From IMG/VR virus record IMGVR_UViG_3300045051_000531: a DNA stretch of 64,000 nucleotides; one strand, 5' to 3'. The first letter of the stretch is position 1; the number at the start of each line of letters is the position of its first letter. Position numbers and translations under genes: made by a program. A model generated the notes under the pieces. The model was not told the origin of the DNA, did no database searches, and saw only the letters and a list, made by a program, of their open reading frames with translations. This stretch comes from a virus. Below, one piece after another: positions 418 to 64,000 of the stretch.

Positions 418-732
418 ATGACCGACGTCACCCAGTACGCGTTCGAAGTGCACGCCCCGACGGCGGGCCGCGAGGGAACCTTCACGGCCACGCTGCGGAT
501 CCCGGTTCAGGCCGGCGAGGGCGGCAAGCCCGGCAACGAGAGCCAGGTCCTCCACTACATCCGGTCGATTCAGCTCAAGAACGACTTCATGAACGGGTGG
601 TGCAAGGACAACGCCGCAGGCTACGGCCTCGAGATCCGCGGCGGCCCCAGGCCGGTCTTCAAGGTCGCCAACGATCGCACCTCGGGGGTCACCGCTTACG
701 AGCAGGACTTCCGGCTGACCCGCCCGATCTGA
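418..732 (+). CDS. hypothetical protein
   Basis: 104 aa, RBS, strongly GC3 codons. Confidence 0.8.
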   Translation: MTDVTQYAFEVHAPTAGREGTFTATLRIPVQAGEGGKPGNESQVLHYIRSIQLKNDFMNGWCKDNAAGYGLEIRGGPRPVFKVANDRTSGVTAYEQDFRLTRPI

Positions 733-733
733 C

Positions 734-1147
734 ATGGCCGACAAGAACGACATCGTTCTGACCTACCTGATGGGGGTCAACCTCGCCGACCAGGAAGCCA
801 ACTTCAGAGGCGTCCTGGAGAACATCGCGGAGGTCCCCGGGACCCCCAAGATCAGGGACCTCGTGATCGCGACGACAGCGATCCTGATGTCCCTGGGTGG
901 TCTGGGTTGGCCGGTCATCATGCGGGTCATGACGCATCTCAAGACGCGTAGTGACTCCCAGCTCCAGCAGGATGCCGTGGCCATCATCAACGGGGCCTAC
1001 TTGGTGCTCCCCGGTGCTGATGGTGCCGTCATCGCGTTGGAGCTCGCTACGTTGCGCACGGTTCCCGAGCTCGGTCCCGCGTTCGTCTCGACGATCTACT
1101 CCATGACGGCGGTATGGGAACGGACCACGGAGATCCTGAAGGGCTAA
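734..1147 (+). CDS. hypothetical protein
   Basis: 137 aa, follows previous stop directly. Confidence 0.75.
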   Translation: MADKNDIVLTYLMGVNLADQEANFRGVLENIAEVPGTPKIRDLVIATTAILMSLGGLGWPVIMRVMTHLKTRSDSQLQQDAVAIINGAYLVLPGADGAVIALELATLRTVPELGPAFVSTIYSMTAVWERTTEILKG

Positions 1148-1686
1148 CGGCACGGTGCCCGGTCTGTGGAACTGAAGTCCGAGCCGAGGACATCAGAGCC
1201 CTGATCGCCGCCGTGAAGAAGTGCTGCGCCGCGACGCGCGTCTCTGAGACGCGCGTCCGCCCGTTTCCGGAGGTCCCGCAGCGCCGGCCTGATCCCTTGG
1301 AGCTCCCGTTCGTGGCCACGTTTACCAAGCTGGTGTCGTCGCAGAACAAGACTACGTACAGCCATTGGTCCGTGCATCACGCCGATAAGAAGGCCTGGAT
1401 AGCCCAGGTCAGGCTTCGGTTGCCGAGGTTGTTCGGGCTCCGGGCACCGTGGTCTCGTTGGAAACTTGAGCGAGTCTACTCTGGCAGGAATCGCGAGCTC
1501 GACTTCGCCAACCTGGTTGGTGGCGCCAAGCCGCTGATCGATGTCCTCACCGAGTTCGGGATCATCGTCGATGACTCCCCGGCGCACTTCCTGTGCGAGT
1601 ACGATCAGCGACGCGATGACAGCAGTCGCACTATCCTCACCCTCCTGGAGATCCGAGATGCCCGCCCGACCGACGAGGTTCGATGA
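1114..1686 (+). CDS. rusA: RusA-like Holliday junction resolvase family protein
   Basis: ELDFANLVGGAKPLIDVLTEFGIIVDDS matches RusA DxDN..K...DxL..G..xDD; start uncertain. Confidence 0.65.
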   Translation: MGTDHGDPEGLTARCPVCGTEVRAEDIRALIAAVKKCCAATRVSETRVRPFPEVPQRRPDPLELPFVATFTKLVSSQNKTTYSHWSVHHADKKAWIAQVRLRLPRLFGLRAPWSRWKLERVYSGRNRELDFANLVGGAKPLIDVLTEFGIIVDDSPAHFLCEYDQRRDDSSRTILTLLEIRDARPTDEVR

Positions 1687-2620
1687 GTTCAACGGTCAAC
1701 GCGACGCCGTCTTCAACCTGAAGATCGCGGTCCGATCGGCTCTTCGGCAGGAGCGGGCTCTGTCCCACGCGTTGTTCACGGGTCCAGCTGGGCTCGGGAA
1801 GACCACGTTGGCGTTGTCCGTGCTGCCGGCTGAGCTCGGTACCGATGTCAGAGCAGTGAACTGCTCCTCGATCGAGAAGCCGCAGGAGCTCACCACGGTG
1901 CTCAGCACGATGAAGGCTCGCAGCATCCTGTTTCTCGACGAGATCCACGCCTTGATCCCAGCAGCCCGGGAACACCTCCTCACCGTGATGGAGGACCGCA
2001 AGCTGTACGTCAGGATCGAGGAGGACCGCGATGTCATCGAGATCGGGTTGCCCGAGTTCACCGTCATCGGGGCGACGACCCGAGAGGGTGCCCTCGATGG
2101 GCCCCTGCGGAGTCGCTTCGGGCTCAGCTTCACGCTGCAGCCCTACGATGACGACGCCATGGCGGCGATCATCAAGTGGCATGTCTCCGAGTCCAAGTTC
2201 CTGATTCCCGACGAGGCCATCCAGTTGCTCCTGGGGGCTGCACATGGCGTCGCCAGGCGTGCCGTCAATCTGATCGAGGCCTGCATCGATTCCGCCTACG
2301 GGCGTGATGACGGTAACCGGGCAGTCGCAGCTACACCGCTGCTGAGCCCAGACATCGTGGCGTTTACGCTGACCAGGCTCGGGTTCCGCGGCAGCTTCGA
2401 TGCCAAGGAGATCAAGTACCTCAAGGTCCTGGACCGAGCTAGGCGGTACATCGGGCTCAAGGCCCTGGCAGCCACGTTGGATGAAACCACCGCGACTGTC
2501 GAGGAGGTCTACGAGCCCTGGTTGCTCAGACAGGGGTACATAGAGCGCGCCGCAGCTGGGCGCGCAATCACACAAGCCGGGATAGATGCCCTGGCTGCAG
2601 CCGAAAGGAAGGCTTCATGA
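1658..2620 (+). CDS. ruvB: Holliday junction branch-migration ATPase RuvB
   Basis: RPTRFDEFNGQ, Walker A GPAGLGKTT, Walker B LFLDEIH, IGATTREGALDGPLRSRFG, C-terminal EEVYEPWLLRQGYIER..GR; ATG 1658 chosen by homology. Confidence 0.93.
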   Translation: MPARPTRFDEFNGQRDAVFNLKIAVRSALRQERALSHALFTGPAGLGKTTLALSVLPAELGTDVRAVNCSSIEKPQELTTVLSTMKARSILFLDEIHALIPAAREHLLTVMEDRKLYVRIEEDRDVIEIGLPEFTVIGATTREGALDGPLRSRFGLSFTLQPYDDDAMAAIIKWHVSESKFLIPDEAIQLLLGAAHGVARRAVNLIEACIDSAYGRDDGNRAVAATPLLSPDIVAFTLTRLGFRGSFDAKEIKYLKVLDRARRYIGLKALAATLDETTATVEEVYEPWLLRQGYIERAAAGRAITQAGIDALAAAERKAS

Positions 2621-3237
2621 TCGTATCTGTCTCAGGGAGGCTGACGAACGTCTATCGCATAGGTCAGGACGTCCGCGTCATCATAGAGATCCCCGCTGGG
2701 GTCAGTTTCGAGATCGTCACGGTGACCAAGCCGAAGCAGGAAGTCGGTGATCCGAGCGTGTTCATGCACACCTGGCAGGTGTTCCGTGAGGACTACCAGG
2801 TCCTGTTTGGGTTCGACAGCCTCGATGAACGGCTTCTGGCGGAAGCTGTGGCGGAGACTGATGGTATCGGACCGCGGAGCGCTGCCCGGATCGTCCGGGT
2901 TTGCGGAGGCCCCAACATCGCTACGGCGTTCCGGGCCCAGAAGACTGATGTCCTCAGGGAGCTGCTTCGTGGATCCGGGATCGGCCTGAAGACGCTCGCC
3001 AGCCTGATCCTGAACAACAAGGTCGGCGATCTCATCGATCGTTTCGATGGCGGCGACGTGCCACCGCTGTCGGCCACCATGGCGGTACGGGCACAGGCGG
3101 CTCTGGCCGAGCTCGGCATCGAGAGCCGCGAGGTCGACAATCTGATAGCGGAGACCATCAAGGCGGTTCCCGATATCACGATTGAAAAACTGGTTGGACA
3201 GACCCTCAATCTGGTTCGCGGTCTGGAGAAGAAGTAG
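2617..3237 (+). CDS. ruvA: Holliday junction DNA-binding protein RuvA
   Basis: MIVSVSG start, FREDYQVLFGF, HhH motifs TDGIGPRSA and GSGIGLKT, C-terminal ALAELG domain III-like segment; ATGA overlap with ruvB. Confidence 0.85.
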   Translation: MIVSVSGRLTNVYRIGQDVRVIIEIPAGVSFEIVTVTKPKQEVGDPSVFMHTWQVFREDYQVLFGFDSLDERLLAEAVAETDGIGPRSAARIVRVCGGPNIATAFRAQKTDVLRELLRGSGIGLKTLASLILNNKVGDLIDRFDGGDVPPLSATMAVRAQAALAELGIESREVDNLIAETIKAVPDITIEKLVGQTLNLVRGLEKK

Positions 3238-3617
3238 TGCACGTCATCGTGACATCGAACAAGACGCATCGTGTTCTCGGGCTCAAGGCGAACCTGAGCG
3301 CTGCACTGGCGGTCACCGTCGGCAACGCGTTCACGGAATCCTTCGATCCCGAGGCGCCGCTGCATGATCTCCTCAGGTCGATGTTCGGGGAGCACAAGTA
3401 CCGGTGGTTCTGTGTCGATCAGTCCGACGTGGTCTACGCGATCACGTTCTCTGACGCCGCGAATCCGCGGGTACTGGAGTACCAGGGTGCCCCGGCATCG
3501 ATCAGTGCCCCGGATCGGGCCACGCTGGAGATCAGGATGCAGGACATCGACATGATCAGGCCTGGCCGGGTGAACGTGAAAAGCGCACACTACATCCAGG
3601 ATGTTTCGCGTTCGTAG
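3237..3617 (+). CDS. hypothetical protein
   Basis: 126 aa, TAG/GTG overlap with ruvA. Confidence 0.7.
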   Translation: MHVIVTSNKTHRVLGLKANLSAALAVTVGNAFTESFDPEAPLHDLLRSMFGEHKYRWFCVDQSDVVYAITFSDAANPRVLEYQGAPASISAPDRATLEIRMQDIDMIRPGRVNVKSAHYIQDVSRS

Positions 3618-3669: not shown

Positions 3670-4881
3670 ATGGCTGACGACATCAACGAACGCTACGCGC
3701 AGAAGCTGAAGTCCAACTCGGATAAGGCTTTCGCGCAGCTCGAAAAGCTCGGTGGTTCCGCCGGTCAGGCCGCAGCCGCGGCTCACACCCAGCTGCTGAA
3801 CTGGCTGATCCAGATGGACCGGGTCACCAGGAACCCCGCCGAGCTCGCCGATGACGCCCTGGCCAATACGGCCTGCAATGTCTTCGAGAAGGTCGTCACG
3901 AAGCAGTCCAAGGGTGCCGATGATAAATGGGCCAAGCTGAACGAGGCCTTCTCGGCGCTCGGGGACGAGGACCAGCTCAACCTGATGCGGTACATCTTCG
4001 CCGCGGTCTTCGGTCACCAGGCCGTCGCAGCGGCCCTGCTGAGCCGGAGCTCCGGGAACTTCCTCTGGGAGAACACCGCGTTCCACATCGACGGCGACCT
4101 CCGCGTCGCCTTCGCCAAGGTGGGTCGCGAGCTCTACCAGGCCATCGGCTTCGACGACGGCATGCACTACATCGGGACCGATGGGTCCAAGACGCTGTGG
4201 ACCCGGGACTGGGCCATGGCGGTTCTGCTGCCGTGGGCGCCTCCGTTCACGGTCACCAAGCAGGAGGTCGAGGAGCTCGCCGAGGGTCCCAAGCTGCCGG
4301 ATCACCTCACCGAGGCCGAGATCCCCAAGATTGCTGGCGCCATCGCCAACATGGAGGAAGAGCTCGCCAAGTACAACAAGGCGTCGGCTGAGGCTAAGAA
4401 GAATGCCGAGGCTGATCTTCGCGACACCATCAAGCTGGTCCGGATCCAGGTTGTCCGGTTGGACAAGCACTGCGAAGCCTGGGTCGACAAGAACCCCGAG
4501 TACGGCCTGAACTTCGAGGCGCTCGAAGTCACCCAGCTCGCCATCACCATCCTGGAGTACCTCAGGATGCTGTTGGACAACGACAAGATGCATCGACAGA
4601 TCCAGGCTACCGTGCTCTGCGTCGGGACCCCCAAGGAGGAGCGCGCCAAGCTGTTGGACACCCTGTTGAGTGGCATCGCGCAGCAGCTCCCGCTTGAGGG
4701 TGCCACGGTCGACGGGGACGCCATGAACCGACGTCTCGACGAAGCCGCGCAGGCGATTCCCGAAGCTCGCGATCTCCTGATCCAGTTGAAGACGCAGAAC
4801 CCGGAGTGTTCTGTGCTCCAGGCAGCCAAGGAACTGATGATCTGGCTGCAGCAGGAGCGGACCAAGTTAGACGCCAAGTAG
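3670..4881 (+). CDS. hypothetical helical protein
   Basis: 403 aa, very GC3-biased codons, flanked by promoter and terminator. Confidence 0.85.
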   Translation: MADDINERYAQKLKSNSDKAFAQLEKLGGSAGQAAAAAHTQLLNWLIQMDRVTRNPAELADDALANTACNVFEKVVTKQSKGADDKWAKLNEAFSALGDEDQLNLMRYIFAAVFGHQAVAAALLSRSSGNFLWENTAFHIDGDLRVAFAKVGRELYQAIGFDDGMHYIGTDGSKTLWTRDWAMAVLLPWAPPFTVTKQEVEELAEGPKLPDHLTEAEIPKIAGAIANMEEELAKYNKASAEAKKNAEADLRDTIKLVRIQVVRLDKHCEAWVDKNPEYGLNFEALEVTQLAITILEYLRMLLDNDKMHRQIQATVLCVGTPKEERAKLLDTLLSGIAQQLPLEGATVDGDAMNRRLDEAAQAIPEARDLLIQLKTQNPECSVLQAAKELMIWLQQERTKLDAK

Positions 4882-5770: not shown

Positions 5771-6562
5771 TTGTGCATAATATGTACAAGCGTGGGGCAC
5801 ATAAAAGATCGCACGGGACTTTGCATTGGTGGGGCAACCGTTATTGGTCTGGCTTCGAAACAGCCTGGGGACGCACACGCTTACTGGCGATTACGGTGCA
5901 TATGTGGGCGTGAGTTTACAAGGTCTTCAACCATGCTTGGCGCAGTCAGGGCAGCCCGACGGCCCATTACGTGTGGCTGTATCCGGGACAAGGTAGCTAA
6001 GCAGCTTTCAGCGATGCGGACTATCGATCTTACCGGGTTACGCTTTGGCAGACTGACCGTGGTAGGCCAGGTTGAACGCCCGGCGCATGTGACCGGTAAA
6101 AATCGGGCGGCCTGGTGGAGGTGTGTCTGCGATTGCGGCCGGAGTCATGTAGTCACAGCTACCTCTATGAAGTGTGGTGCTACGCGTAGCTGTGGTTGTC
6201 TCAGGATGGAGCAGCTTAAACAGCGCGGCAGCTTAATTCCGGTTAGACGGTACTTGAATACATACGTTCGAGCTGCATTGGGGCGTGGACTGGCCTGGGA
6301 ACTGTCTGTCGAGCAGTTCGAAGCCCTGATAAAGCGTCCATGCACCTACTGTGGTGAGCCGCCGAGTAAGCCGATTAAAGCGCGAGCGCATGTCGAGTTG
6401 TTCAATGGGATCGACAGGCGGGATAACAGTCGCGGCTACACACCCGATAACGTAGGCGCCTGCTGTGAACAGTGTAACAAGGCGAAACGCAGGATGTCAG
6501 CGAAAGAGTTCTTAGCCTGGGTAACCAAAGTCTATAACTTCAATAGGACAAACGATTTATGA
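5771..6562 (+). CDS. HNH/His-Me finger endonuclease, homing-endonuclease-like
   Basis: Two DxTG..G..TV..WxCxCxCG..CGC repeats plus CTYCG..GIDRRDNSRGYTPDNVGACCEQCN; more AT-rich than neighbours. Confidence 0.8.
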   Translation: MCIICTSVGHIKDRTGLCIGGATVIGLASKQPGDAHAYWRLRCICGREFTRSSTMLGAVRAARRPITCGCIRDKVAKQLSAMRTIDLTGLRFGRLTVVGQVERPAHVTGKNRAAWWRCVCDCGRSHVVTATSMKCGATRSCGCLRMEQLKQRGSLIPVRRYLNTYVRAALGRGLAWELSVEQFEALIKRPCTYCGEPPSKPIKARAHVELFNGIDRRDNSRGYTPDNVGACCEQCNKAKRRMSAKEFLAWVTKVYNFNRTNDL

Positions 6563-63859: not shown

Positions 63860-64000
63860 ATGCCCGAAGACACCAATGACAAGGTCCGCAAGACGCTGCT
63901 CGGCGGACTCCTGAACCCCTGGGTCGGCGTCGCCGCCCTGGCTGGCGCCATCGTCGGCTACATCATCGGTCGCGTCGTCGTGACGGATAGGTTGGACACA
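63860..64000 (+). CDS. membrane protein, 3'-truncated
   Basis: AAGGAG RBS; WVGVAALAGAIVGYII TM helix. Confidence 0.6.
   Translation, partial: MPEDTNDKVRKTLLGGLLNPWVGVAALAGAIVGYIIGRVVVTDRLDT

Follow-up and report, generated by a model that had tools for sequence, protein, structure and literature searches.

Analysis of a 64,000-nucleotide stretch (hereafter the window) of the virus genome in IMG/VR record IMGVR_UViG_3300045051_000531 indicates that this phage encodes RuvB and RuvA, the two proteins of the RuvAB branch-migration motor, downstream of a RusA-like protein, a predicted Holliday-junction nuclease of the RusA superfamily. Over its first 5 kb the window carries a series of + strand genes (Table 1), among which the trio at 1114-3237 consists of three overlapping genes in the order resolvase-ruvB-ruvA, an arrangement described in the initial annotation and confirmed by reading the DNA: the upstream gene up137 ends at 1147, inside the RusA-like gene; the TGA of the RusA-like gene (1684-1686) lies 29 nt inside ruvB; and ruvB and ruvA overlap by the ATGA at 2617-2620. 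These overlaps imply co-translation. The ruvB open reading frame (ORF) spans 1541-2620 (359 aa); the gene in fact begins at the ATG at 1658, which is preceded by a GGAG 9 nt upstream, and the product read from that position begins MPARP, as in its relatives.

Table 1. Predicted genes of the conserved block near the start of the window.
Gene or product	Position	Strand	Remarks
up104	418..732	+	First gene of the conserved seven-gene block; no Pfam or PHROG match
up137	734..1147	+	137 aa; conserved; 3' end overlaps the start of the RusA-like gene by 34 nt
RusA-superfamily resolvase, long form	1114..1686	+	190 aa; fold match to RusA
RuvB AAA+ branch-migration ATPase	1658..2620	+	320 aa; Pfam RuvB_N and RuvB_C
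RuvA	2617..3237	+	206 aa; OB domain I with acidic pin RED, helix-hairpin-helix (HhH) domain II, putative domain III
dn126	3237..3617	+	126 aa; no family match
dn403	3670..4881	+	403 aa; last gene of the conserved block; no family match

The second protein of the trio matches both RuvB_N (5.9e-41; 140.3 bits against a cut-off of 27) and RuvB_C (5.1e-18; 65.2 bits against a cut-off of 24.7), and aligns over its full length with every solved RuvB (6e-52 to 1e-39), the best entry in the PDB being 3pfi (6e-52). The residues of Walker A (G45/G47/K48/T49), Walker B (D94/E95), sensor 1 (T140/T141), the arginine finger (R153) and sensor 2 (R200) are invariant or nearly so across eight members of its clade and 67 RuvB sequences, and the winged-helix G-R is invariant in the clade. 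Clamp loader, the name carried by the best PHROG matches, was overruled as an identification by the stronger RuvB-specific N- and C-terminal domains and by the full-length matches to RuvB structures. The pre-sensor-1 beta-hairpin of RuvB receives domain III of RuvA. In the window protein this hairpin, KLYVRIEEDRDVIEI, is two residues shorter than in the RuvB of C. jejuni or P. aeruginosa, and its loop length differs by 0-3 residues within the phage clade; the clade conserves no more of the AAAGR motif than its GR, and the C. jejuni protein has TAKGR at that place. The shortened hairpin and altered motif to which the initial annotation drew attention are therefore literally present, but they are ordinary variation, in the clade and in bacteria, and not diagnostic.

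The product of the third gene aligns with E. coli RuvA (1bdx) over residues 7-197 (phmmer, 2.5e-11), and a profile of four phage RuvA sequences matches RuvA structures at 1.6e-15. Against a cut-off of 23.6 bits, Pfam RuvA_N gives 22.8 bits for the protein sequence and 24.8 bits when the DNA is searched in six frames. The acidic-pin segment FREDYQVLFGF stands opposite VREDAQLLYGF of the E. coli protein; domain II gives a weak HHH_5 match in the window protein (0.012) and matches above the cut-off in the homologues on contigs L003 and L002; and the G-x-G-P of the GIGP motif is invariant in seven homologues. Over the C-terminal domain III the alignment continues to residue 197 of 206, equivalent to residue 199 of 203 in the E. 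coli chain, but its final 60 residues are aligned with low confidence. A homologous-protein search with RuvA returned only RuvA itself.

The first protein of the trio is recognised by its fold. With its AlphaFold2 (AF2) model, built on the family alignment (predicted local distance difference test (pLDDT) 86), the best six Foldseek matches are E. coli RusA structures (1q8r, 2h8e, 2h8c; probability 1.0; template modelling (TM) score by target 0.62-0.70), and VIA-align superposes model residues 63-181 on E. coli RusA with Z 10.3 and a root mean square deviation of 2.9 Å, 110 of 118 residues being aligned, whereas the next unrelated fold reaches only Z 5.5. By sequence, hhalign relates the protein to E. 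coli RusA (K-12) with E 0.0026, and the match to PHROG 34 (RusA-like) is weak (2e-3); a profile of the family found no match among PDB sequences, where RusA was recognised by fold comparison only. The core also falls among viral clusters of the ESM Atlas designated hypothetical (TM 0.81-0.91), in two of which Pfam RusA is found on 13-14% of members. The model predicts a separate module in residues 1-45, a CxxC beta-hairpin followed by a helix ending in CC (zinc-ribbon plus helix), then a flexible, low-confidence linker in residues 45-62 and the RusA core in residues 63-187; the module and linker make up an N-terminal extension of 60 residues relative to classical RusA. Thus, the RusA fold anticipated for this ORF is borne out, and the description "RusA-type" holds for the fold but not in the canonical sense, since the protein fails the Pfam RusA threshold and lacks the equivalents of D72 and R69, besides carrying the extension.

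Mapping of the window protein onto the K-12 sequence with hhalign places S76/N78 at S13/N15 of E. coli RusA, L129 at R69, D130 at D70, A132 at D72, N133 at N73, K139 at K76 and D153/D154 at D90/D91, with a three-residue insert ahead of the K76 equivalent. D70, D72, K76 and D91 are reported to be critical for E. coli RusA (PMC1636454, PMC10956419). The window protein thus lacks a carboxylate of the catalytic set as well as the principal arginine for DNA binding, and of the Arg-rich DNA-binding loop only R127 is left nearby (R or K in 150 of 163 family members). An alignment of 19 homologues from a large protein collection contains the invariant motifs S-Q-N...H-W, D-[FY]-A-N-L-V-G-G-A-K-P and V-D-D. 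In the wider alignment of 163 members, D130, K139 and D143 are present in all 163, N133 in 162 and D154 in 161, so that little or no variation is seen at the equivalents of D70, N73, K76, D80, D90 and D91; position 132 is A in 82, G in 46 and D in 24. Conservation of this degree, like that of the RuvB motifs, points to purifying selection. Because this position varies among A, G and D within one family, the protein probably belongs to a branch of the RusA superfamily in which the D72 carboxylate is dispensable, rather than being an inactivated copy. An exhaustive profile search recovered 2,410 cluster representatives of the family at E<=1e-3, of which 485 also reach E<=1e-10. Of the 163 best-scoring members, 52 possess the N-terminal CxxC...C module and have a median length of 177 aa, whereas the 111 without it have a median length of 124 aa.

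A search of the whole genome in six frames yielded no RuvC (PF02075) match at E<=1, although the same model matched 11 of 14 reference genomes used as controls; nor did six-frame searches of the whole genome detect RecU, endonuclease VII, Pfam RusA or RecA, and the positive control RuvB_N matched in the expected place. Since there is no RuvC, the trio is not a RuvABC resolvasome, in agreement with the earlier proposal that the motor is paired with a resolvase of another type. These results bear on an alternative in which the RusA-like protein does not cut DNA and is instead a junction-binding adaptor that brings RuvB to four-way DNA, a role like that of RuvA, while a host nuclease or an unrecognised phage nuclease carries out resolution. 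Alanine and leucine at the D72 and R69 positions would suit such an adaptor, as would the RuvB-linked lineages with no recognisable adjacent RuvA (L004, L151), but the near-invariance of the remaining active-site equivalents, the variation of the D72 position within the family, which argues that this carboxylate is dispensable, and the failure to find another resolvase anywhere in the genome make a non-cutting protein improbable.

The trio lies within a block of seven genes (up104, up137, RusA-like, RuvB, RuvA, dn126 and dn403) that recurs in independent metagenomic contigs (L001/L013, L002, L003, L004, L007, L010, L011, L012 and L014/L015), where identity to the window proteins is 43-53% for RuvB, 36-57% for the RusA-like protein and 16-26% for RuvA. 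RuvA follows directly after RuvB in most of the clade of the window, and the RusA-like protein and RuvB are the most conserved pair. An ORF for an FkbM-like methyltransferase separates ruvB from ruvA in L001 (L001 5951-6613), and in L004 (4557-5072, 5974-6321) a 171-aa ORF of no assigned function stands between the RusA-like gene and ruvB, with RuvA reduced to a remnant. The apparently short protein of L010 results from a miscalled start, a CPKCG...CC module being present in frame upstream. In a second lineage, that of the distant long forms P0054 (L151) and P0072, an overlapping ruvB again follows the nuclease gene; there ruvB is followed by an ORF of 130-150 aa, not recognisable as RuvA, and then by a PolB-exonuclease-like gene; this is a different phage lineage. 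The 150-aa ORF after ruvB in L151 was considered as a RuvA and is not recognisable as such. In P0144, a very distant long form, an NT5C-like gene takes the place of ruvB, and around the six distinct short-form loci (L005/L006, L155-L159) no RuvB is present for at least 2.5 kb. Accordingly, ruvB is immediately downstream in 12 of 13 long-form (CxxC...CC) loci versus none of six short-form loci (Fisher's exact p 2.6e-4, a value to be read with the caution that the loci are not phylogenetically independent and the long forms are related). The synteny comparison called for in the initial annotation therefore shows adjacency of the RusA-like gene and ruvB to be conserved in diverged phages and to accompany the N-terminal zinc module.

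The source record is a single genome of 191,518 bp, classified by IMG/VR as a virus with terminal repeats and assigned 100% completeness by CheckV; its ends have 127 bp in common, the signature of a circular assembly. A Pfam overview of the 88 proteins of at least 200 aa revealed a gpA-type terminase ATPase (GpA_ATPase) and viral-type genes, and no housekeeping genes; the Pfam terminase model PF03237 did not match, the gpA-type terminase having come from the overview. The element is thus a phage, as had been supposed, and not a bacterial contig. Upstream of the trio are genes for a family-A DNA polymerase, at 6.5 kb, and a superfamily 2 (SF2) helicase, at 13 kb, and a DEDDh exonuclease gene lies 3.6 kb downstream; the presence of these three genes around it places the trio in a replication and recombination module.

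The relationship of the window RuvB to cellular RuvB was examined in a scan of 185,579 species genomes, in which the best identity to a bacterial RuvB was 32-37%, the sequences concerned being spread over Bacteroidota, Campylobacterota, Bacillota, Pseudomonadota, Chloroflexota and others. In a FastTree phylogeny of 132 rows, 81 of them bacterial, the nine RuvB proteins of the trio clade form a monophyletic group with a support of 99 and a long stem. All 81 bacterial rows, together with four IMG/VR rows resembling host DNA, make up another supported clade (96), to which the nine do not belong; 38 further RuvB-like rows from IMG/VR likewise lie outside the bacterial clade. Since the clade stands apart from all 81 sampled bacterial RuvB sequences at 32-37% identity, the window protein does not appear to be a recent host capture. 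These data also address the explanation that the trio is host DNA, either a mis-assembled bacterial ruv operon or a recent passenger with no phage-specific role. In its favour, four IMG/VR RuvB sequences nest among bacterial ones, and most RuvB matches in GenBank phage records resemble host contamination. Here, however, the assembly is complete and circular with viral genes on both sides, G+C is uniform, the gene order is not bacterial, identity to any bacterial RuvB does not exceed 32-37%, and the clade is monophyletic and is flanked by the same phage genes wherever it recurs in independent samples; an origin as host DNA is exceedingly improbable and already refuted in practice.

The rarity of RuvAB in phages, which the initial annotation had asserted, is upheld by the GenBank phage records, among which there are 37 RuvB matches, all at <37% identity and mostly on short contigs or at prophage edges; most of these look like contamination. 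No match to window positions 1000-3400 turned up among GenBank phages in a DNA search for distant similarity. A literature phrase search for phage-encoded RuvA or RuvB found no paper, and no published phage was found to combine RuvA and RuvB with a RusA-fold nuclease.

The best-supported reading of the trio is that of a phage-borne module for branch migration and resolution, whose components would act on the same junction. We estimate the probability that RuvA, RuvB and the RusA-like protein act in one junction-processing pathway at roughly 60%. In such a pathway, RuvA would bind four-way junctions and load RuvB; hexamers of RuvB would power ATP-dependent branch migration; and a dimeric RusA-superfamily nuclease, the product of the overlapping upstream gene, would cut the junction. 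Its likely tasks would be the debranching of intermediates of recombination-dependent replication before packaging and the restart of broken or reversed forks. The N-terminal zinc-ribbon/helix module and flexible linker may tether the nuclease to RuvB (or RuvA), and a direct physical complex of the proteins can be suggested only tentatively. It is somewhat more doubtful that the long-form nuclease docks specifically on RuvB through the zinc-ribbon/helix module, forming a viral resolvasome in which an enzyme of the RusA fold replaces RuvC or RecU; where no RuvA is adjacent (L004, L151), the nuclease might also serve to target junctions, in which case two proteins would suffice as a minimal machine for migration and cutting.

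Several observations weigh against a joint pathway. The link between the RusA-like protein and RuvA or RuvB is one of gene arrangement. RusA of E. coli works without RuvAB (PMC1636454, PMC10956419), so adjacency may reflect just a shared pathway or expression timing. RuvA evolves fast: L004 retains only a remnant of it, and beside the ruvB of L151 it cannot be recognised, so that a complex with three fixed parts is not universal. The residue replaced by Ala132 is essential in E. coli RusA, and Leu129 occupies the place of R69; Pfam RusA (PF05866) has no match on the protein at E<=0.1 nor in six frames at E<=10; and the absence of other resolvases from the genome rests on Pfam models, which could miss divergent ones. 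The deep placement of the phage RuvB is provisional and may be partly long-branch attraction, because it comes from FastTree with long branches.

The main rival is accordingly a shared pathway without physical coupling, in which the genes are co-expressed and their products mechanistically independent: the RusA-like nuclease would act alone, RuvAB would separately migrate branches or reverse forks, and the zinc module would be an extra DNA-binding element. In phage replication modules it is common for genes of related function to be packed so closely that stops overlap starts even though their products do not interact, and zinc ribbons often bind DNA. The phage enzyme would then resemble E. 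coli RusA in acting without RuvAB, and RuvA can be lost while the RusA-like and RuvB genes stay. Against full independence stand an adjacency, usually an overlap, of the RusA-like gene and ruvB that holds across two lineages with differing other neighbours, and the occurrence of the N-terminal module in RuvB-linked forms while 111 of the 163 aligned family members do without it; we regard it as appreciably less likely than a joint pathway. The coupled module for branch migration and resolution remains the preferred reading.

In its parts the trio resembles known systems; as a whole it brings known kinds together in a new way. Like RuvABC of E. coli, it includes a RuvA with OB domain, HhH motifs, acidic pin and a putative domain III and a RuvB with all AAA+ motifs and a winged helix, both encoded beside a junction nuclease, here predicted to be dimeric and of Mg type; it differs in that the nuclease has the RusA fold and not the RNase-H-like fold of RuvC, and in that the genes are virus-encoded, overlap in the order resolvase-B-A and specify a RuvB 32-37% identical to bacterial ones. 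A precedent for RuvAB working with a resolvase of a fold unrelated to RuvC is the RuvAB-RecU resolvasome of B. subtilis (PMC8583203). RecU, however, is a cellular PD-(D/E)XK enzyme, and none was found in the phage genome searches. With RusA of E. coli DLP12, phage 82 and relatives (1q8r, 2h8c) the window protein shares its fold (Z 10.3), its phage origin and the equivalents of S13/N15, D70, N73, K76 and D90/D91; in contrast to classical RusA, it escapes the Pfam RusA model, has Ala for D72, Leu for R69 and three extra residues before K76, carries the 60-residue zinc-ribbon/helix/linker region and is encoded next to ruvB, whereas the classical enzyme works without RuvAB. In phage T4, the UvsW helicase and endonuclease VII provide a branch-migration motor and a debranching nuclease for recombination-dependent replication and packaging. 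They belong to unrelated protein families, and the T4 genes are neither adjacent nor translationally coupled. Stand-alone RuvB-like genes in viral contigs (L016-L069) are also RuvB homologues, but the 89 immediate neighbours of these genes include no RuvA, RuvC or RusA-like gene; five of these records searched in full gave no RuvA_N or RusA-like match, two of them being complete genomes of 393 kb and 427 kb.

To our knowledge, RuvAB has been treated as a cellular machine, and phages have been known to carry resolvases and not the motor; RusA is the textbook resolvase that acts on its own. In the present case RuvA, RuvB and a RusA-fold nuclease bearing a tether-like module are all viral, and large phages from soil and freshwater that form one clade have kept the set. 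RuvAB thereby joins the recombination functions that large phages can supply themselves. As a compact system that can be expressed, the trio lends itself to studies of the coupling between a branch-migration motor and a resolvase of unrelated fold, and its nuclease represents a RusA-like family of 2,410 cluster representatives, not recognised by Pfam, in which the D72 carboxylate may be dispensable.

The genes flanking the trio are conserved in position. Homologues of up104 occur at the same position in L001-L004 and L007 with 34-64% identity, and up137 has nine homologues with 36-55% identity. The AF2 model of up137 (pLDDT 92.9) is helical in its N-terminal part and has, besides, a small beta unit and a helix at the C terminus; Foldseek found no PDB match at E<=1e-3 (best E 0.25), and identification as a MerR-type regulator was rejected, the best VIA-align Z of 6.1 being within background. 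Downstream, dn126 has homologues at the same position in L001, L003 and L004, and dn403 has homologues in L001-L004; no family, fold or Atlas assignment was obtained for either, the Atlas model of dn403 being poor and its matches uninformative.

Elsewhere in the window, PHROG scans of ten large proteins gave almost no matches, and no tRNA genes were found. A 263-aa Cys-rich ORF at 5771-6562 has repeated C-x-C-G and CxxC motifs and no Pfam match. Rhizosphere metagenomes contain the full stretch and may be its source. At window positions 63981-64000, 16 of 20 bases differ from the genome record, the remainder of the window being identical to it. The Pfam overview of the genome also revealed multisubunit RNA polymerase domains, a TROVE/Ro60 domain, ThiF (E1-like), helicases, a family-41 glycosyltransferase and, elsewhere in the genome, SbcC-like and SbcD-like domains, an accessory gene set that is unusually rich for a 191-kb phage.

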